Of a DNA stretch of 64,000 nt, positions 5,995 through 57,311 are shown in pieces (position 1 is the first letter of the stretch; each line of letters begins with the position of its first letter). Both the position numbers and the translations under genes were made by a program. The notes below the pieces were generated by a model that was not told the origin of the DNA, made no database searches, and saw nothing but the letters and a program-made list of their open reading frames with translations. Origin of the DNA: Leucoraja ocellata (taxonomy: Eukaryota); contig JAWMAR010000535.1 of the NCBI GenBank assembly GCA_036785375.1, positions 310,001 through 374,000 on the forward strand, written 5' to 3'.

Positions 5995-6324
5995 GTATTC
6001 AAACAAAAGAGCTTGAAAGTAGTGGGTCTGTAACTGCTGTAAAAGGCAGTTCTGCAGCATTACATTGTGCCTCTTCAAACAAAGATCTCAAACTGGTATT
6101 AGTTGAATGGGAGAAGTCCGAAAACAGAACGAAACTCGTTGTGTTCAACGCGGCCACAAACGCAACAACTCCCCACAGTGAACGAATAAAATTGGAAGTT
6201 AATGGACATCGATCCACGATCACAATCATAGGAGTTCAGCCAGCAGACAGTGGCTGGTACACCTGCATATTTCATACCTATCCAAACGGCAAAATAGAGG
6301 GCAAAGTACACTTGGATGTAAACG
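5995..6324 (+). CDS. TIGIT: IgV-domain exon of a TIGIT-like (nectin/PVR-binding family) receptor
   Basis: Acceptor tttttctttactcccccag, donor G|gtaatg, phase 1-1, open frame (G)IQTKELESSGSVTAVKGSSAALHCASSNKDLKLVLVEWEKSENRTKLVVFNAATNATTPHSERIKLEVNGHRSTITIIGVQPADSGWYTCIFHTYPNGKIEGKVHLDVN. It has the V-set C, W and D-x-G-x-Y-x-C; CIFHTYPNG parallels TIGIT CIYHTYPDG. The exon is well supported; the symbol is tentative. Confidence 0.75.
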
Positions 6325-7158
6325 GTAATGTTTTACAAAATATGTCAAATTTATGAACTGCTTTGAATGATGTAAAATTAAGCAATATTTAAATGGAGGT
6401 TTTCAAAATGGTGAATGGATACATTTATTCCAGAGAGCTCAGATAAATCTCAAATGGATACATTTTTATAATGATTAGAAATCCCAATTTGCTGAAAGAT
6501 TTTTCTTAAATACTCTCATCTGCCAATTATGGATCACGCTAATAGTGTTTATAAAAGTACCACAACTTTTTAATACAAAAGGTGGAAGTTATATGGAACT
6601 AGCTGCCAGAGTGGGCAGTTGAGTAGGTTGTTGTGTACTATTACAACATCTAAAAAACATTCGGACAGGTACATAGATAGGAGAGGTTTAGAAGGATGTG
6701 GGCCAAATGCAGGCAGGTGAGACTAATGTAGGTGGAGCACATTGGTAGGTGTTGGCTGGAAATCTGAAACATAAACAAAAAGTGCTTGAAATTCTCAACA
6801 AGTTAAGCAGCATCTGTGGATGGAGAAACAATATTAATGTTTCAGATTGAAAACCTTTCCGACTTAATGTTTCATGTTGACGGCCCTTAGGTAAAACTGA
6901 TGAAATGTTAATTGTTTCTTACTCCACAAAAGCTGCCTCACCTGCTGAATTACTCCAGCATTTTGAGTCTATCTTCAGCCATGTCCTTGATGGGTGAAAG
7001 AACAGGCCTTAGCAGCCCCATGGTCCATTCCATTTCTTGTACCACAACGTTTTTGAGGTGATTCATTCATTGAATCTGATCTTTGAAGTTGATCAATAAT
7101 AATATAATTCAGTGAATAATTTGAACATGCATTTGTAAACCTTTTTTGTTATTAACAG

Positions 7159-7215
7159 GGTATGACATAACTGCAAAGTACCATCTTAAGAAAAATATCT
7201 TAATATACCTTGCAG
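7159..7215 (+). CDS. Stalk/TM-start exon of the TIGIT-like gene
   Basis: Acceptor cttttttgttattaacag, donor CAG|gtgaga, 57 nt, phase 1-1, open frame (G)YDITAKYHLKKNILIYLA. Confidence 0.7.
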
Positions 7216-7772
7216 GTGAGAATTAAAACAAAACTCTGTCCATTATCCTCACAATTTCAGTATTAGTTTATAATCTTGAATTACTATTAATTTAATGTTG
7301 GTAGAATATTACAAAGAATCTGTAAAACATGTACAGGTTATGCTAGTTATGCAAATAGAAGTTACTACATAGCTTTTCAAATCCAGTTATACTAAACTTA
7401 TGTTATTTATTTTTATTATGTTATCCTAATGGTTATACAGTATTAATTTATCTTGCCCTTTAAGCTTTTATGCTTCAATGACTTCTGTACAATCAATTTG
7501 ATTTCACTTGAAATATCATGAATGCATTATCAACTACTTTTGGGCGGCTGTGGCTTTTAACCCAAATAATTTGAGCAGCTAATTTGCGGTGTCTTTAATG
7601 CTCTTAATCTTCATATAAAACGGGAAGCTCAACAGCAATTGGACTCGGGGAAGGATTGTCAATAACAAAATGCATCACATTGCAACAGTGCAAATGATAG
7701 TACACAAGGGCTGTGTAAATAGGGAACTGCAGCATCATTTTACAGCAATTGGTGTTCTTATTATTTCAACAG

Positions 7773-7841
7773 TTTCAATTGGTGCCATAGCAATTATTGT
7801 TGCTGTGTTGATTACATGGAAGTTGAAGAGAAAGTCTTCAG
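7773..7841 (+). CDS. Transmembrane exon of the TIGIT-like gene
   Basis: Acceptor gttcttattatttcaacag (alternative in-frame AG at 7744-7745), donor CAG|gtgagt. Spliced product gives ILIYLA|VSIGAIAIIVAVLITW followed by KLKRK stop-transfer. Confidence 0.8.
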
Positions 7842-8074
7842 GTGAGTCCTACGTGACTGCAAACATTTCCTTTCTGCTTAACTTCCTCTAAATTTAATTT
7901 CCAAACAGACATTATTATTTCACAATGCAAACAACTCCAATAACATGTCACAAACAAGGAGACTTGCTTCCCTGGACTAAAATGTAGAAAAATTGCCACA
8001 CGGCATTATTCCAACTTGCATAGGTTTTCTCTACCCCTTAAATTACAAAATTACATTTCCTCAAGGAAAAGGAC

Positions 8075-9845
8075 ATGGAGGATACTGAGATCAGTGTGGG
8101 ATATACCAATATGTTCGGACATTTGAAGATCAAGTAGATGGTGTTAGGTCTCTTAAAAAGCAAAAAGATGGATGAATCCCCAAGGCAGCAGCTGGGCTTG
8201 TATACTCTGGAATATAGGATGAGAGGGGATCTTATTGAAACACATAAGATTATAACCATATAACCATATAACCATATAACAATTACAGCACGGAAACAGG
8301 CCATCTCGGCCCTACAAGTCCGTGCCGAACAAATTTTTTTTTTCCCCTTAGTCCCACCTGCCTGCACTCATACCATAACCCTCCATTCCCTTCTCATCCA
8401 TATGCCTATCCAATTTATTTTTAAATGATACCAATGAACCTGCCTCCACCACTTCCACTGGGAGCTCATTCCACACCGCCACCACTCTCTGCGTAAAGAA
8501 GTTCCCCCTCATATTACCCCTAAACTTCTGTCCCTTAATTCTGAAATATGGATTATGAAGGGTTTGGACACGCTAAAGGCAGGAAACATGTTCCTGATGT
8601 TGGGCGAGTCCAGAACCAGGGGCCATAGTTTAAGAATAAGGGGTAAGCCATTTAGAATGGAGATGAGGAAACACTTTTTCACACAGAGAATTCTCTGCCT
8701 CAGAGGGCGGTGGAGGCCGGTTCACTGGATACTTTCAAGAGAGAGCTAGATGGGGCTCTTAAAGATAGCAGATAGTCAGGGGATATGGGGAGAAGGCAGG
8801 AACGGGGTACTGATTATAGATGATCAACCATGATCACATTGAATGGCGGTGCTGGCTTGAAGGGCCGAATGGCCTACTCCTGCACCTATTGTCTATTGGC
8901 ATGATGGCAAGAGTGTAGATTGTCAGGGCCTTGGTGAAGGTCTTTGTATCTACTCTAGCCAAGCAAGGTTATGGAGGGCTGGAGAAAAAAAAAGTGTAAT
9001 TTTGTTTAAGAGGGAAATTGAGATAATCCAGAAAATTATACGAGAGTCTCACAACAATGGAAGGGAAGTTATTGGAGAAGATTCTTAGGGATAGGATTAA
9101 CATGCATCTAGAAGAGAATTGGCTAATTAGGGACAGTCAGCATGCCTGTGTGTAAAACAGGACATGTCTTGCAAGCTTGATTGACTTTTTTGTAGAATTG
9201 AAGTAGGTGACTGTTGAGGGTAGGGCTGTGGATGTTGTCTACGTTTGACAAGGTCCCTCTTGGAAGGTTGATCTAGATGATTAAGATGCATGGTGCACAA
9301 TGACTTGATAGTTTGTATTCAGAACTGGCTTACTCATATAAAATGACGGAGGTTAGAAGTGGAAGAGTGTTATTCTGACTGTGTGACCTGTGTGTTCTGC
9401 AGGGAACAGTGCTGGGACCTCTGTTGTTTGTGCTATCTGTCTGTCTATCTGTCTAAGTGCGTGCGTGTGTGTGTGAGACTTGGACAAAAATGTAGATGGG
9501 CTGTTTAGCAAATTTGCAGGTGATTCAAAAATAGACAGTGAAGAAGGCCATCAAAGGATGCAACTGAATCTAGATCAGTTACAGATATGGGTGGAGAAAA
9601 GGCAGATTAAATTAACAGAGCCAAGAATGCAGTGCTGCCCACAGCAAATGGTAATGCCTGGAATGTGCTGCCAGAGTTGGTGGTGGAAGCAGAATAACAG
9701 GCATTTAAGAGATTTTTAGATAGGCACATGAATATGAAGGGGAGGAGGGATATGGATCATGTGCAGGCAGAAGGGATTAGTTTAATTTGGCGTCAGGTTT
9801 CGCACAGATATCATGAGCCAAAAAGCTTGTCCCTGTGCTGCACTC
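8075..9845 (+). mobile_element. Composite of CR1 LINE fragments, including a minus-strand CR1 tail at 8251-8545
   Basis: ORF2 remnants (SKFAGDSKI, GESRTRGHSLRIRG); the (TATAACCA)n-tailed antisense insert is flanked by GATTAT at 8248 and 8551. Confidence 0.8.
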
Positions 9846-10296
9846 TTCAAAGTGAATCTCATCTCTTTGTGGCACAATATAACATTTGGCTGTGTGCTTC
9901 CGGCTGAGTCAAGGCCACTGGTGCTAGTCTGCTGTGAATTGCATTTGCAAGCGCCCACTATTCCTTACAGACTAATATTTCAATCCCAGTTACATTTCAG
10001 ATGATAAACTTTGAATCAATGCATATCATGCTTCATAAATACAAGTATAAATTCAGATGTTTGCTAAATGTAGAGCATTCTATGGTCAGTTAAACAGCAT
10101 GGAAACAAGCTCTTTGGTCCAACGTGGTCAATGCGGACCAATGTTGCATCTGTCTGCGTTTGTCCAGTATCACTCCAAAACCATTCTATCTGTATACATG
10201 TCCAATTGTCTTTTAAAGTAGGTAATTGTACCCACCGTTAGCACTTCATCCAGCAGCTTGTGCCAAATACCCATCGCCCTTTGTGTGAAACAGTTA

Positions 10297-11203
10297 CAAG
10301 ATACAAGATACAAGATACATTTAATTGTCATTTGGACCCCTTGAGGTCCAAACGAAATGCCGTTTCTGCAGCCATACATTACAAACACATAGACCCAAGA
10401 CACAACATAATTTACATAAACATCCATCACATCGCTGTGATGGAAGGCCTAATAAACTTACCTCTCCACTGCACTCTCCCCTCCCCCGATGTCAGAGTCA
10501 AAGTCAAAGCCCCCGGCTGGCGATGGCAATTGTCCCGCGGCCATTAAAGCCACGCCGGGTGGTGCGAGGTCGCACACCGGGTCTTGGTGTTAGAGCCCCC
10601 GGCGTGCGCTCGCAGAGTCCCGCGGCCATTCCAAGCCGCGCGGGGCAGTGATGTTAGGCCCCGCTCCAGGAGCTCTTCGACCCCGCAACTCGGGCGGGGG
10701 AAGTCGCCGTTGCGAGAGCCCTGAAAAGCGGTCTCCCTCCAGGGAGCCGCGGGCTCCCGGTGCCGCCGTCCACAGACCTGCCGTTGGAGCCTCCGACTCT
10801 CCGGTAGCAGCAGCAGCAGCAGCAGCAGCAGCGGCAGCGGCAGCAGCAGCGGCAGCGGCAGCGGCAGCGCTCCTCCACCGCTCCACCCGCTCCAGTCTCG
10901 GCCAGCCCCGCGACGGCGACGGTGAGTCGTAGCACCAGAGTCCCCGGCTTCTTCCTGTTGGAGGCCGCTCCTCGTTGCGGCCCCAACGACAACGGAAACC
11001 CGACGAGAAAAGGTCGGGTCTCCAGTGCAGGGAGAGATTTAAAAAAGTTTCCCCCCCCCCCCCTCCCACCCCACCCCCGCCCCCCCACACACACACCCCA
11101 ACAAAAAAATAACAAAAACTACATTTAAACACAGACAGAAAATAATAAAACGCGGACAGACTGCAGAGGCCGCTGCTGACCAGAGTCGCGCCGCCCACCG
11201 GAC
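10297..11203 (-). mobile_element. Non-coding GC-rich retroposon with (TCTTGTA)n tail, inserted in a CR1 3' fragment
   Basis: Near-identical, inverted, to 48464-48994. GGACCTC-AAG-GGGTCC stem before the tail; internal (CAG/CGG)n at about 10808-10868. Confidence 0.7.
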
Positions 11204-11399
11204 GGTTGCACCCCCCCCCCCCCCCCCCCACATCCCATTAAATCTTTCCTTTCTCATCTAATTTTTGATTCCTCTACTCTGGGTAAAAGACAATGACCAT
11301 TCACCTTATCAATGCCCATCATGATTTTGTAAACCTCTGTAAGATCACCCCTCAGCCTTCTATATTTCAAGGGAAAAAATACCCAACCAAAGGGCACAA

Positions 11400-11870
11400 G
11401 GGCGACACAGTAGTGCAGCGGTAGAGTTGCAGCCTTACAGCGCCAGAGACCTGGGTTCGATCCTGACCACGGTTGCTGTTTGTACGTACTTCCTGGGACC
11501 ACTTGGGTTTTCTCCGGGCGTTCCGGTTTCCTCCCACATCCCACAGACGTACAGGTTAAGCCCCTGTCCCAATTAGGAAACCTGAACGGAAACCTCTGGA
11601 GACTTTGTGCCCCGCCCAAGGTTTCCGTGCAGTTCCCGGAGGTTGCAGGTGGTTGCCGGAGGTTGCAGGTAGTGGAAGCAGGTAGGGAGACTGACAAAAA
11701 CCTCCAGGGACCTCCGAGAACTGCACGGAAACCTTGGGTGGGGAGCAAAGTCTCCAGAGGTTTCTGGTCAGGTTTCCTAAGTGGGACAGGGGCATTAGGT
11801 TAATTGGCTTCTGTACATTGTCCCAATGGTGTAGGATAGAACTAGTGTACAGTTGATCATTGGTCAGCTA
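11400..11870 (+). mobile_element. HE1-like V-SINE interrupted by a MITE
   Basis: tRNA head with GGTTCGATCC and V-core; sequence resumes GGTTAATTGGCTTCTG after 11797. Confidence 0.8.
11559..11794. mobile_element. Palindromic PIF/Harbinger-like MITE
   Basis: Inverted arms of about 85 bp starting GCCCCTGTCCCA; TTA duplication at 11556-11558 and 11795-11797. Confidence 0.85.
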
Positions 11871-12262
11871 AAATCTCTGGTAGGCTCTGCTAAAATCCAC
11901 ATAGACAATGTGTATTGCTTTTTCCTCAGCAATCCTCCTGGTAATTCAATTTAGTTAGTTAGTTAGTTTAGTTTACCAAGGAACAGTAAAAATTACAGTA
12001 AACTAGAGCACCTGGAGAAAACCCACGCAGGTCATGGGCAGCATGTACAAACTCTATAGTGACAGTATCCCTAATCAAGATCAAACCCGGGTCTCTGGCG
12101 CTGTAAGGCAGCAACCCAATAACAACATCTCAGTTATTGATAGGATGGTTCAGTTGCCTTATAACAGCTAGGAAGAAACTTCAAGATGTCGCATTTGAAG
12201 AAAAATCAGTTTGGCATTAATGTGCTTCCAAAAATTACCTTTACATTGTTCTAACAAAAGAA

Positions 12263-13030
12263 GTACGTACATGGTAAATGGTAGGGAATTGAAGAATACA
12301 GTTGAACAGAGGGATCTGGGAATAACCGTGCATAGTTCCTTGAAGGTGGAATCTCATATAGATAGGGTGGTAAAGAAAGCTTTTGGTATGCTAGCCTTTA
12401 TAAATCAGAGCATTGAGTATAGAAGCTGGGATGTAATGTTAAAATTATACAAGGCATTGGTGAGACCAAATCTGGAGTATGGTGTACAATTTTGGTCGCC
12501 CAATTATAGGAAGGATGTCAACAAAATAGAGAGAGTACAGAGGAGATTTACTAGAATGTTGCCTGGGTTTCAACAACTAAGTTACAGAGATAGGTTGAAT
12601 AAGTTAAGTCTTTATTCTCTGGAGCGCAGAAGGTTAAGGGGGGACTTGATAGAGGTCTTTAAAATGATGAGAGGGATAGACAGAGTTGATGTGGACAAGC
12701 TTTTCCCTTTGAGAATAGGGAAGATTCAAACAAGGACATGACTTCAGAATTAAGGGACAGAAGTTTAGGGGTAACATGAGGGGGAACTTCTTTACTCAGA
12801 GAGTGGTAGTGGTGTGGAATGAGCTTCCAGTGGAAGTGGTGTCGGCAGGTTCATTGGTATCATTTAAAAATAAATTGGATAGGCATATGGATGAGAAGGG
12901 AATGGAGGGTTATGGTATGACTGCAGGCAGGTGGGACTAAGGGAAAAAAAAAAAAAAGTTGTTCGGCACGGACTTGTAGGGCTGAGATGGCCTGTTTCCG
13001 TGCTGTAATTGTTATATGGTTATATGGTTA
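12263..13030 (+). mobile_element. CR1 LINE 3' end (ORF2 C-terminus plus 3' UTR)
   Basis: RDLGITV..LYKALVRPNLEYGVQFWSP..LERRRLRGDLIEVFK; (GTTATATG)n tail. Confidence 0.92.
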
Positions 13031-14258
13031 AGTAAATTATAAACATTAAGAACAGTGGTTTTCTCAAGATTTCTGGCATCTGCATTTCCTTGTTGCTTCA
13101 CAATGGGTATAACAACATTTAGGAAGTGCAGAAAACAACACCTCTCCTTCTTCAACGTTCTTCCTTGAACTAGAGGTCCACCACTGATTTTCCGGCACTC
13201 TTGGTTCCAGAGCCTTTCTGGATTAGCTGGACCAAATAGAGGAATGAAATGGTGCCGGGACTGTCCACCCATGCCACCAGGGTGCCAAAATACTGGCCTA
13301 CAAAGTCAGCCTCAGAGGTTGGCTAAGGGAACGGATCTACAGGCTCCGGTCGAAAATTCAACCCACCGATTGGTCACGGAAGTCCCGATGAAGTCGATAT
13401 CGGCCGCCATACCCGGCCAAGGCACCACATTTTCGGAGGGATTTCCAGGGGGGAGGGGAGGATTTCAAGTGTGCTCTCGTAATTTTGCCCAAATGAAAAG
13501 AGATGTCGGACCACCAGTTGCTGGTATTGTCTACAGAAAAAAAAAAAGCGGTTTGTTCTGCTGAATATAAACAGCCTGGTAACACAGCCTCGTTTACAAT
13601 TTACAATGAAATACAAAGAGCTATTTTTTGTCTTTAAAAAGAAAACAGATGGGTCGGGCTCTGCGAGACATGGTAATGCGTGAAACCTGCTGATGCCTTG
13701 ATGGCTGCCTCTTTCATTTTGCAAAAAGCATGTTTGGATTTTCACACTTGGCTTTGCACTGTCTGTCAATAAAGATTCCCACTGTCAAAATTACTTTGTA
13801 GTTTGAAAACAAAAGAGCAAGCAGTCAACTGATCAAAACCGATTTGTTTCTCCTTACATCTAATTCACCCCAATGTGCATTGAAAATTGGAAAATTACTT
13901 GGCTGCCCTTGTTAAAAGAAGAGTTTTAAGGACAGAACTAAAGATGAAATAAAGATGTTCTTCAAAGCAAATGCTGAAGAAGAGCAGACATGCCTGGAAT
14001 TATTGGATTTTCGTGTTTGTTCCTTGTGTGATAGATAGGAGAATTTTACAATAAATATATGGGAATATATTTCATACAGACAGAAGCTGCAATCTCATTG
14101 TGATGTCAAATTGGGATTAATATTAGAGTAACTCAATGGGTCACAGGTTAATAGAGTATCTGTCCCTCCAATACTTTGTTTGTACTCAAGATTCCAGCAT
14201 TTGCAGGTCCTTGTGTCTCTGGGGATAAATATTTATTTAAAAGGGATTTCTAGTGAGA

Positions 14259-14725
14259 AACTTCAAGAGACGTCATGAAATTGCAGAGAATTGTGGATAC
14301 AGTCCAGAACATCACACAAAGCAACCTCCCTTCCATTGACTCCATATACACTTCACCAAGGACCAGTTGCACCCCAGTAACTCCCTCTTCACCCCTCTCA
14401 CATCAGGCAAGAGGTGTAGAAGTGTGAGAACGCACACCACCAGATTCAGGGACAGTTTCTTCCTAGCTGTTATCAGGCAACTCAACCATCCTATCACCTC
14501 TAGGGAGTGGTCCTGAGCAGCCACCTATATAATTGGACGTCTACAGATTGTCTTTAATCAGATTCTACTGGACTTTATCTTGCACTAAACATTATTCCCT
14601 TAATCCTGTATCTGTACACTGTGTACAGCTCGTTGGTAATCATGTATAGTCTTCCTGCTGACTAGATAGCACACAACACACTGTACCTCGGTAAACTTGC
14701 CAATAAACTAAACTAACTAACTAAC
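14259..14725 (+). mobile_element. Rex1/Babar-like LINE 3' fragment
   Basis: Degenerate HP..SLF.PL.SG.R.RSVRT.TTRFRDSFF.AVIRQLN, then a GTACCTCGGTA stem, AATAAA and (AACTA)n. Confidence 0.7.
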
Positions 14726-15067
14726 TACTGAAGCCTATCCTTTGGGATTGAAGGATCATGGATTTCCCCAGTTTGTTTTACGTTTGGTTAATTAAGGAGC
14801 CATGGAAGATCAGAATTATTATCTCCTTGGCAATGAAGAACTGGTCTGACACTATCCTCGGAGCAGGCAGCAAGTCTTCACACACTACCAGTCAATTTGC
14901 TCTGTATACTTTCAACTTCCCGGAAAAAGTATTTAATAAATGAATTTAGCCCTATTCTTAGTTCATTATATTATACCTAGTCTCTCAATCTGTGTAGTTG
15001 AAAGTATTTAAACAACATCCAAGGGAGATAGAACCAAGCAATTTTAAATAACTCTGAAAACAACTGC

Positions 15068-15290
15068 AGGCGGCACAGGGATCAGCTGGTAGAGTCGCTG
15101 TCTTGCATCACGAGAGACCTGGGTTTTGGTGCTTGCACATTCTCCCATTAACCAGGTCATGGGTTCCCTCCTGGGTGCTCCGGTTTTCTCCCACATCCCA
15201 AAGACATGCGAGTTTGTAGGTTAATGGACCTCTGTAAATTGTTCCTAGTTTGTAAGGAATGGATGTGAAATTGGGATAACATAGTGGATG
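15068..15290 (+). mobile_element. HE1-like V-SINE
   Basis: GGCGGCACAG head and V-core. Confidence 0.7.
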
Positions 15291-15559
15291 CATCATTTAT
15301 TGAATAATGCTACACAATAATCTACAAATCTTGTTTATTATAATTAATTGCAAAGACTTAATTGGCAATTGAGAAAAGTCTATTGCCACCCATGAGGTTA
15401 TGATTTACCATTCATGAATGGCTGTGACTGCACAAATTTACACATATGCAGCTATTTATGTGTTGTCAATCACTGGAATTCACCCCAATAATCTACATAT
15501 GATAAGTTTTACAAGACTGACAGTACAGGCTTACAGTTTAATGTCAAACAGCTTAGGGA

Positions 15560-15870
15560 TGCAGTGGCGCAGTGGTAGAGGTGCTGCCTTACAGCACCAG
15601 AGACCTGGGTTCGGTCCTGACTAGGGGTGCTGTCTATATGGAGTTTGTATGTTCTCCCTGTGACCACGTGGGTTTTCTCTGGGCGCTCTGGTTTCCTCCA
15701 ACATTGCAAAGACGAGCAGGTTTGTAGGTTAATTGGCTTCGCTAAGTTGTAAAATTGCCCCTAGTGCGTGTGTGTAGGTTAGTGTACGGGGTGATCGCTG
15801 ATCGGCATGTACTCGTGGGCTGAAGGGCTTGTTTCTGTGCTACATCTCTAAATTCTAAAAGTCTAAAGCG
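15560..15870 (+). mobile_element. HE1-like V-SINE
   Basis: A/B boxes, V-core, CR1-like tail. Confidence 0.85.
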
Positions 15871-16122
15871 ACAGATTTCATTAAAAAGACTTCAGCAGAT
15901 ATACTCCTACTCTGAATTCTGTGAGAATTCCTGAGAAATACACGCTGCTGCACATATCATTTTTGATGTCCATTGGTGGTTTCTTTAAAGAGTAGCACTG
16001 AGGAACTATAATTGTGTTTGGAATTTCTCCGGGTGAGAATATTGCAGTTTTTCACATTGTGGATGAAGTCTTCTTTCATCAGTAGTTTGCCACCATCAGT
16101 ATTTTGCCTTTTTTTCCCACAG

Positions 16123-16200
16123 AAATAAATCAAAAGTCATATATCCCTGTATGAAAATGAGGATAGCACACCAAGCACCGTATATCACAATTTACAATGA
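16123..16200 (+). CDS. Probable terminal cytoplasmic exon of the TIGIT-like gene (frame ambiguity)
   Basis: Strong acceptor ttttgcctttttttcccacag. Phase-1 reading gives EINQKSYIPV*; the adjacent frame gives SHISLYENEDSTPSTVYHNLQ* ending at 16200. Confidence 0.6.
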
Positions 16201-17804
16201 ATACAGCTGGATCTAATCTAATAGCTTCATTCAACAGGATGGAGTGCATTTCATTTGGCTTTGCTTGTCCATGTTATTGCAATTCCATATAAACTGCATG
16301 GGTCATTTCTCACTTATGAATGATTGGGATGTCATTGTCACTGCTGTGGCCTGATGAAGCTTAACCATACCTCATTCCAGTTTGAAATGTTGCTGAACTG
16401 GTGCACGATAAAGTATTGAGGAGACACACTAAAATCATTCGATATGTTATCTGCCATAAGCATGTAAGTGGAATCATTAGTTAGGTTGAAGCAGTACATT
16501 CATAAGACCACAGTTGGTTATTATTTATGTCTGAAGATACAATAAACTGCAGATGTTGGAATCAACAGCAAACAATAAACTACTGGAGAAACTCAGCAAT
16601 TCAGGCAGCATTTGTGACGGGAAATGTACAGTTGAAATATTAGGACAAGATCCTTCATCTGGATTGAGATTTAATTTCCTATTTTCTTAATTCTATATTT
16701 TACCAATATACTCTTTATATATTATGATTATCTCTCAACAGAGCATGGTCGAAACGCATCCAAAATACCTCCGATATATGAAAATGTGGATAACAGTAAG
16801 TTCAATAAGTCCTGTACCAATAATTCTCTGGCAAAGTAAAAGTCCTAAAGGCTACTCAAATGCTCGATTGACTGCGAGACAAACAATAAGGTGTGCTGGT
16901 GAAAGAATTTTTTCTCAGACTAGAAGGGATACAATGGTGTTCCTCAGGGTTTGGCATTAAGACCAACTGTGCTTTTGATTTACATTAATGACCCAGACTT
17001 ATGTAAACAGGGTTTCATAGTGAAGTTTGGAGATGGAACAAAACATGGAAATTTAGTAAGCCGTCAATAGGATAATAACCAATGAAATGAATAACAATAT
17101 GGCAGATAAATTAAGGCCAATTGGGGATGAATTAATTCAATTTGTTAGGAAGAGTGGGGAGAGTCAGTGTAAACTGATTGATATAATAATAAAGGTTGAG
17201 GAGATAAAGACACATTTTAGCTTTGTAAGTAGATGCAGAAGAGTATTAATGCAAGGAACTGATACTAAACCTAGGTAAAATGTTGATTAAGCACCAGCTA
17301 TGAGACTGTGGCCTACTCCGGATACCTATTGTGTAAAGTTTCTGAGGCCTCAGCATGGGATCAGAGATTTACAAGGGTGAGACCAGGGCTACCTTACTGC
17401 AGTAATGGGAATAGATTTGAGAAACTGTAATTGTTCTGAACAAAAAATGATTGGAACTAAAAGATTTGATTTGGAATGCTCAAAATTCTGAAAGATTATG
17501 ATGGGGAAGGAGGAAACAAAAGTATTGTCTTCAAAACAAAAGTATTGCTACCAAAAACAAATAGATTTAAGAAAACAATCAACATGGGAAAGAACTATAG
17601 AGGACTTGGGTAAAACATTCAGTGTACACAGCACTGAAAGGATCATGGTTGCCAAGTGACATTCTCTTGTCGTAGAGTTAAAAGACATCTCGACAGGTAC
17701 ATGGAAAGGCAAGGTTTAGAGGCATACGGGCCAAGCACGGCAGGTGGGACAAACAAAAATGGGGCATCTTTCAATCATTATCATCTGATTCAATTATATG
17801 AGTA

Positions 17805-45466: not shown

Positions 45467-45621
45467 ATGGAGCAGCCTCAGTGCAAGAGTCCCGGGCCGT
45501 CGGAGGCGTCGAAGCGTTGCTCCGCTGCCGTGAGAGTCTCTGTGCCGAATTTGCCCTGGTGACTGGCATGGATCAGGCTGCGGCTCGGTGCATCCTGGAG
45601 GACAACCAGTGGCTGCTGGAA
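45467..45621 (+). pseudogene. TDP2: TDP2 exon-1-like fragment, copy B (UBA-like domain start, frameshifted from its ATG)
   Basis: RESLCAEFALVTGMDQAAARCILEDNQWLLE|gtaagt aligns with TDP2 RRLLCVEFASVASCDAAVAQCFLAENDWEME (recalled). No downstream TDP2 exon was seen. Confidence 0.75.
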
Positions 45622-57271: not shown

Positions 57272-57311
57272 ATGATAAGAGCAGCTTTTGTCTGCCTGCT
57301 GATTGTGTCTG
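57272..57311 (+). CDS. Probable signal-peptide exon of a second + strand membrane or secreted protein (exon about 57180-57311)
   Basis: Acceptor tttccttttcaacag ending at 57179; ATG with A at -3; MIRAAFVCLLIVS(G); phase-1 donor G|gtaggt. Confidence 0.55.

Follow-up and report, generated by a model that had tools for sequence, protein, structure and literature searches.

Human TIGIT (3q13.31) lies in the gene order DRD3..TIGIT..ZBTB20 (PMC8351692, accessible part), and a 2026 survey, to judge from its Table 1 and section 8, has TIGIT, CD96 and CD226 arise in amniotes (PMC13262535). According to the accessible part of PMC9263721, CD96 has three Ig domains and a long stalk, and CD226 (DNAM-1) binds Grb2 through a YxN motif. 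In certain mammalian paired receptors (KLRC/NKG2, PIR, Ly49) the partners are alike only in the ligand-binding exon, their signalling parts are orthologous across species and conversion is episodic (PMC3210942, in the part available); Siglec-5/14, Siglec-11/16, CEACAM1/3 and CD300A/C are further homogenised pairs, as far as the source text extends. Here we describe a pair of this kind from the TIGIT family, genes A and B, in the skate Leucoraja ocellata. The stretch analysed, which we call the window, comprises 64,000 nucleotides (nt) of contig JAWMAR010000535.1 of a 3.4 Gb assembly (G000:C535:310001-374000); C85 is the contig of the second haplotype. From sequence comparison, gene B is the TIGIT orthologue and gene A, with its IgV exon at 5995-6324 of the window, is its tandem paralogue. 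The two are like the known pairs in the features just listed and differ from them in belonging to the TIGIT family, in spanning chimaera, sharks and skate, and in that their opposite signs are predicted only. We regard the reading as a whole (an ancient tandem paralogue, a converted IgV, an intact A tail and an opposing pair) as rather probable.

Gene B lies 71 kb downstream of gene A. The features of both genes are as follows, with splice scores computed from approximate frequencies:

C535:305787-305850 (window -4213 to -4150), 4.2 kb upstream of the window: gene A signal exon, same sequence in both haplotypes
5995..6324, + strand: gene A IgV exon, 330 nt, phase 1-1, AG..GT; near-identical to the gene B IgV exon at C535:387148-387477
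7159..7215, + strand: gene A stalk exon with the start of the membrane span, 57 nt, phase 1-1; aligns with the same exon of shark A proteins
7773..7841, + strand: gene A membrane exon, 69 nt, phase 1-1; W-K-x-K-R-K stop-transfer as in shark A proteins
16123..16179, + strand: decayed first tail module, the last exon of a preliminary description of this DNA; strong acceptor, best donor -4.8, stop at 16152-16154
16742..16795, + strand: intact second tail module, IYENVDN, 54 nt, phase 1-1, AG..GTAAGT
57272..57311, + strand: gene B signal exon
C535:387148-399823, outside the window: gene B IgV, membrane and tail exons

Genes A and B are 97.3% identical over 339 nt. The match extends beyond the IgV exon by 5 nt on the upstream and 4 nt on the downstream side, and within the exon 321 of 330 nt agree. 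Elsewhere the signal exons share 24 of 40 nt, the introns are unalignable and the post-IgV proteins are 15% identical; when 25 kb were compared sensitively with 38 kb, only short repeat-like matches appeared besides the IgV. The assembly holds the IgV twice per haplotype, the paralogues differing at 8-9 of 330 nt and the alleles at 7. Two of the 15 variable IgV sites are fixed between the loci, both synonymous, and one is polymorphic at both; synonymous differences between A and B number 3 in 110 codons. The skate A IgV is 94% identical to that of skate B and 49-55% to those of shark A. Taken over the four copies, 10 of the 15 variable sites are amino-acid changing, and neither gene has a part that varies more than the IgV.

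The same arrangement recurs in other cartilaginous fishes. Database relatives were gathered by profile search and word search, which yielded A-type proteins, each with a B, from Heterodontus, Carcharodon, Cetorhinus, two Chiloscyllium, Hemiscyllium, Stegostoma and Callorhinchus (seven sharks and one chimaera), with the signal, stalk, membrane span and tail types of skate A. The IgV domains of A and B are 94, 97, 91, 90, 86, 86, 75 and 94% identical within species in the eight pairs, and the post-IgV parts 13-24%; between distant lineages IgV identity is 32-72%. The IgV tree groups sequences by lineage, forcing at least six label changes, and an A clade is rejected (p-AU 2e-67; 1e-151 without the bony rows). 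After the IgV, the tree splits A from B with support of 100/99 and 100/100 in two runs, and moving skate A to the batoid B proteins is rejected (p 9.4e-5). From the post-IgV trees the Chiloscyllium plagiosum A was left out (its model ends repeat-like), as were six bony rows from one run, and the Stegostoma pair, one fused gene model, was cut for analysis. In stalk and membrane parts, skate A has 34-48% similarity to shark A and gene B 31-42% to shark B. The Stegostoma model (XP_048396163, 417 residues, fusing A and B) suggests adjacent, co-oriented genes.

These comparisons make an old paralogue with IgV conversion highly probable, and gene conversion is the likely mechanism by which the exon came to be shared. 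The shared IgV might instead reflect purifying selection, recent independent duplications or assembly error, an account that can point to nucleotide evidence for tracts coming from this genome alone and to bamboo shark A domains grouping by paralogue. It is very improbable: synonymous sites are alike too, the domains are unlike between species while alike within them, a recent duplication would carry introns and tails with it, and the pattern appears in eight independent assemblies and in both haplotypes here. Two observations do count against a constant homogenisation, namely that three A domains of bamboo and epaulette sharks cluster (97/98) and that Stegostoma A and B (75%) are no closer than domains between species (71-75%); judged from the alignments, conversion is episodic, not constant. 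The preliminary description had offered gene A as an early orthologue of TIGIT or a lineage-specific paralogue. The second half stands, 'lineage-specific' being true of chondrichthyans overall and not of this species, and the split of chimaera, sharks and skate is dated to about 420 million years ago (PMC6238376, accessible part).

That gene A is a TIGIT-family single-IgV receptor in cartilaginous fish, as had been proposed, is supported by several searches. TIGIT gave the top nine matches in a PDB sequence search (E 1-2e-10), ahead of nectin-1 (8e-9) and CD226 (1e-5); all nine profile matches at E<=1e-9 are TIGIT; and Foldseek puts TIGIT at ranks 1-4. A second structural aligner (VIA) goes the other way, tying Z-scores across TIGIT, nectins and CD200, the fold alone being not discriminating. 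Against nectins, CD226, CD96, CD200 and PVRIG the assignment to TIGIT holds by sequence, profile and Foldseek, and not by VIA. The IgV exon matches Pfam V-set (E 9e-13) and is modelled by AlphaFold with pLDDT 93. No further Ig exon was found between the signal and IgV exons, and gene A has the layout of a type I membrane protein with a single extracellular IgV. CD96, with its several Ig domains, differs from gene A, where a single Ig exon stands between the signal and membrane exons; CD226, with two V domains to the one of gene A, is a weak match and has its own probable gene in skate (see below). We also considered gene A as part of an upstream V-C2 gene and rejected this, as that gene has its own membrane exon.

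Gene A resembles human TIGIT in its single IgV with the TYP key, in having TIGIT as its best PDB match, and in having ZBTB20 downstream. It differs in having one exon more, for the stalk, a membrane span of unrelated sequence and YENV modules in place of the DYF(N/S)V tail, and in being a gene additional to the orthologue. Of the 90 post-Ig parts that were scored, which was not a search for absence, none from a bony vertebrate was of A type. Gene B, for its part, is identical at 208 of 213 residues to RefSeq XP_055500539 ('TIGIT-like' of Leucoraja erinacea), with 100% identity in the membrane and tail exons; all five differences sit in the IgV. Gene B is followed at a distance of 48 kb, on the other (minus) strand, by a BTB and zinc-finger gene whose fingers have human ZBTB20 as best single-stretch match (200 bits). 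The DNA around the locus gave no match in a DRD3 motif search, and of the synteny expected in the preliminary description the ZBTB20 side is thus confirmed and the DRD3 side is not. The tail of gene B ends in a DYF(S/N)V-type motif, as in 6/6 bony TIGIT rows, which is missing from gene A, and of six bony TIGIT-type post-IgV parts five match the B profile with a better score than the A profile. These last scores are low (3.6-25 bits) and the sole mammal is opposite, which tells against the assignment. We nevertheless identify gene B as the TIGIT orthologue because of its ZBTB20 neighbour, its tail type and the preference of 5/6 bony TIGITs for its profile. An apparent loss of the gene B tail in haplotype C85 proved to be a scaffold gap. 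Automatic annotation names both genes alike ('TIGIT-like', 'CD226-like', 'nectin-1-like', 'uncharacterized'), and the pair is therefore hidden in databases. The elephant shark B entry is named VSTM3, which we take to be an alias of TIGIT.

The TYP/T(F/Y)P key, defined as in the accessible part of PMC9263721, is present in 28 of 29 chondrichthyan domains. The (V/I)(S/T)Q motif, for which we used the definition of the preliminary description, and AX6G occur in none of the 29, whether A or B, compared with 4/6 and 1/6, respectively, in six bony TIGIT rows. The retention of TYP and the absence of the other two motifs were correctly described before, but the changed ligand interface read from them is not a property of gene A: by the alignment, the motif change predates diversification of the pair and is not a mark of gene A. 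As to ligands, nectin-1 and nectin-3 are reported from sharks, and PVR and nectin-2 are not (PMC7286890, within its accessible part). The skate genome offers as candidates a nectin-1 domain 1 (C34:8883676, L005) and a nectin-3-like domain 1 (C92:2416050 and C1570:66112; L068/L069). A complex prediction for the IgV with the nectin-3-like domain scored 0.15 against a mark of 0.34, with the alignment unused. The name nectin-3-like is our assumption, based on the human sequence.

The preliminary description gave gene A four exons, the last carrying a YxN plus ITIM (immunoreceptor tyrosine-based inhibitory motif) tail. Its IgV, stalk and membrane exons and 22-residue span are real, having canonical sites, a Pfam V-set match and shark counterparts, and it rightly reported no signal exon within the window. 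Three strong exon candidates emerged when the unique DNA between 6330 and 40000 was scanned roughly for splice sites. Two of them are 7159-7215 and 7773-7841, across whose junction an uncharged hydrophobic span of 22 residues is formed. Of the acceptors tried in place of 7772, which the shark proteins fit, 7688 is absent from the other haplotype, and it and 7745 are both low-scoring. The last exon of the four fares differently. The membrane exon ends in phase 1, and splicing from 7841 to the acceptor at 16122 gives ten codons and then the stop at 16152-16154. The YEN frame of the 16123 exon has a TAA at 16126-16128 and is unreachable from the membrane exon; read in the entry frame, the start of the exon has its homologue in shark exon 5, and the YEN remnant lies in another frame. 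No indel was found in this frameshifted exon in either haplotype, nor in contigs of two other organisms, and no donor within 200 nt scores above -1.4. The second tyrosine of the 'ITIM' lies past the former exon end, across the dead donor, and the motif is non-coding because its exon is decayed by frameshift and lack of a donor. Rescue of the YEN frame through a 31-nt micro-exon (13642-13672) and an AG at 16136 was rejected, as the acceptor scores -15 and a shark counterpart is absent.

The same evidence bears on the possibility that gene A is itself orthologous to TIGIT, its tail carrying YxN plus ITIM and its ligand face altered in a way of its own. TIGIT is indeed the best PDB match, and YxN plus an ITIM-like motif falls in one stop-free stretch in about 1% of simulated 96-nt stretches. 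Yet splicing from the membrane exon does not lead into that frame, gene B has both the near-identity to the L. erinacea TIGIT-like protein and the bony-TIGIT-type DYF(S/N)V end, and the motif loss is lineage-wide, which leaves this alternative scarcely credible.

Shark A isoforms have two 22-codon phase-1 tail exons, with YENV in each, and some lack one tail or membrane exon, the joins falling on the same phase-1 borders. The intact module at 16742-16795, which the four-exon model had missed and which has one haplotype difference, was located with a profile built from the tails of shark A proteins. If the decayed exon is skipped, this module is in frame with the membrane exon and an open frame of 191 codons results. 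YENV occurs 6 times in 711,875 six-frame residues, and the acceptor of the exon (at 16741) scores 1.0, compared with -0.9 for the true tail acceptor of gene B. An exon without a usable donor is usually skipped. Skipping of the 16123 exon in skate, leaving gene A one YENV, is favoured on these predictions, with use of 16122 possible.

Skate A may on the other hand have lost its signal, with 16122 used to give a ten-codon tail, as a tailless decoy competing with TIGIT or as a pseudogene whose IgV is kept open by conversion. Several points count for this and so against an intact tail: the acceptor at 16122 is strong (9.5 vs 1.0 for 16741); the frameshift is common to both haplotypes and to the two other organisms; in the latter, variation is lower after this acceptor (8 events in 389 nt) than before it (15 in 263; Fisher p 0.017); and no skate or ray A-type protein was among 8 and 22 database matches, though B was seen in seven batoid species. 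Scyliorhinus, Mustelus and Heptranchias likewise yielded B only. The last exon of gene A was not found among 405 acceptors scanned against shark last exons (best score 11; an N stretch lies downstream), and the splice junctions of gene A are predicted from DNA. One raw RNA run (tissue unknown, about 6% sampled, repeats swamping) had 0 reads on 15860-16525 and, in the membrane-exon and YENV-exon bins, no more than roughly the equivalent of one read, and weighs neither way. Loss of signalling has to explain, however, why the 16742 exon keeps IYENVDN, its frame and both splice sites while the module upstream has drifted, and why the signal, stalk and membrane exons are open, the latter two still similar to shark A; and a decayed exon lacking a usable donor would usually be skipped. 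We think such a loss unlikely, and that gene A is probably intact in skate. Haplotype-specific repeat insertions were seen in its introns at window 8253-8551, 10137-12833 and 14356-14849.

As for function, we propose that one IgV exon is re-copied between gene A and TIGIT (gene B) by repeated gene conversion; that A and B would consequently bind the same ligand, probably a nectin (nectin-3 or nectin-1), a nectin ligand shared with TIGIT being predicted for CD226 as well; and that they would signal differently through unrelated stalk, membrane and tail exons. The YENV of A would be phosphorylated by a Src kinase and then bind Grb2, by analogy with the YxN of CD226, making A a Grb2-coupled co-stimulatory partner that offsets an inhibitory B. 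The idea of an opposing pair arises because the binding exon is shared and the conserved tails are separate. YxN is found in 8/8 A tails and 5/17 B tails. The A membrane spans have no charged residue and A has no ITAM (immunoreceptor tyrosine-based activation motif), and it cannot work as DAP12-coupled partners do.

Both receptors might nonetheless be inhibitory, or modulators of one sign, differing in strength, cell type or adaptor only. Human TIGIT inhibits via Grb2 at its own YxN (PMC9263721, accessible part), the ITIM pattern also matches four of eight shark A tails, no membrane charge is available for DAP12 or FcR-gamma, and skate has a separate probable CD226; the activating sign of A is the weakest step because TIGIT itself inhibits through a YxN. 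But unrelated tails that have been distinct since before the chimaera split, next to a homogenised binding domain, are the pattern of opposing pairs (PMC3210942, in its available part), and by the ITIM definition in the accessible part of PMC12151841 the coding motif of skate A, PIYENV with P at -2, is outside the pattern and the IDYFSV of skate B within it. We therefore hold a common sign to be distinctly improbable, and opposite signs, by analogy with known pairs, to be modestly favoured.

Only tentatively, and with somewhat less confidence than we give to opposite signs, do we suggest a TIGIT-derived activating counter-receptor in cartilaginous fishes, whose binding domain may have been kept in step with TIGIT by gene conversion for >400 million years beside an existing CD226. 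If this is true, few known paired receptors would be older, the TIGIT/CD226 axis would date back to the origin of jawed vertebrates, a fast-changing or pathogen-mimicked ligand would be indicated, and the skate partner would have been tuned down from two Grb2 sites to one by the death of one exon. TIGIT at the ZBTB20 locus in skate, and a probable CD226 in the same genome, contrast with the amniote dating mentioned above, and in skate TIGIT is accompanied by a partner absent from mammals. Homogenised binding domains are already known among paired receptors. Our literature search found no paper on a chondrichthyan TIGIT pair, most subscription journals being outside its coverage, and supplements of PMC13262535 and of the elephant shark genome paper PMC3964593 may list the genes; a search for YENV with Grb2 and SH2 also found none. 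With the ectodomain shared by A and B, tail-swap assays can test directly how YxN gives activation or inhibition, which is disputed for human TIGIT; antibodies or probes aimed at the shark IgV, on the other hand, cannot distinguish A from B.

The probable skate CD226 consists of V exons at C89:1793424-1793726 and 1800789-1801049, matching CD226 domains 1 and 2 in order, with a downstream frame containing DIYVN at about C89:1829600; a second copy is inverted on C89. Given this separate gene, we rejected gene A as a substitute for an absent CD226.

The neighbourhood of the pair holds other fragments and genes. Between genes A and B, window 45502-45620 (+) is a lone exon-like match to the TDP2 UBA domain (PDB 6q00, E 7e-5); the first ATG upstream of it is in another frame, the DNA around the locus gave no convincing catalytic TDP2 motif, and it is probably an orphan fragment. 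CD200-like and V-C2 Ig genes are found upstream of the pair. At C535:23-25 kb (-) is a CD200/nectin-like gene that has two exons of V type, and at C535:147-150 kb (-) and 244-264 kb (+) are two V-C2 genes of opposite orientation, which we presume to be CD200R-like; the cluster resembles human 3q13. Among them, at C535:133362 (L054:3362-3616, +), is a tail-like frame with VLYATI and DYAVI, which could be a BTLA- or CD200R-type inhibitory tail.

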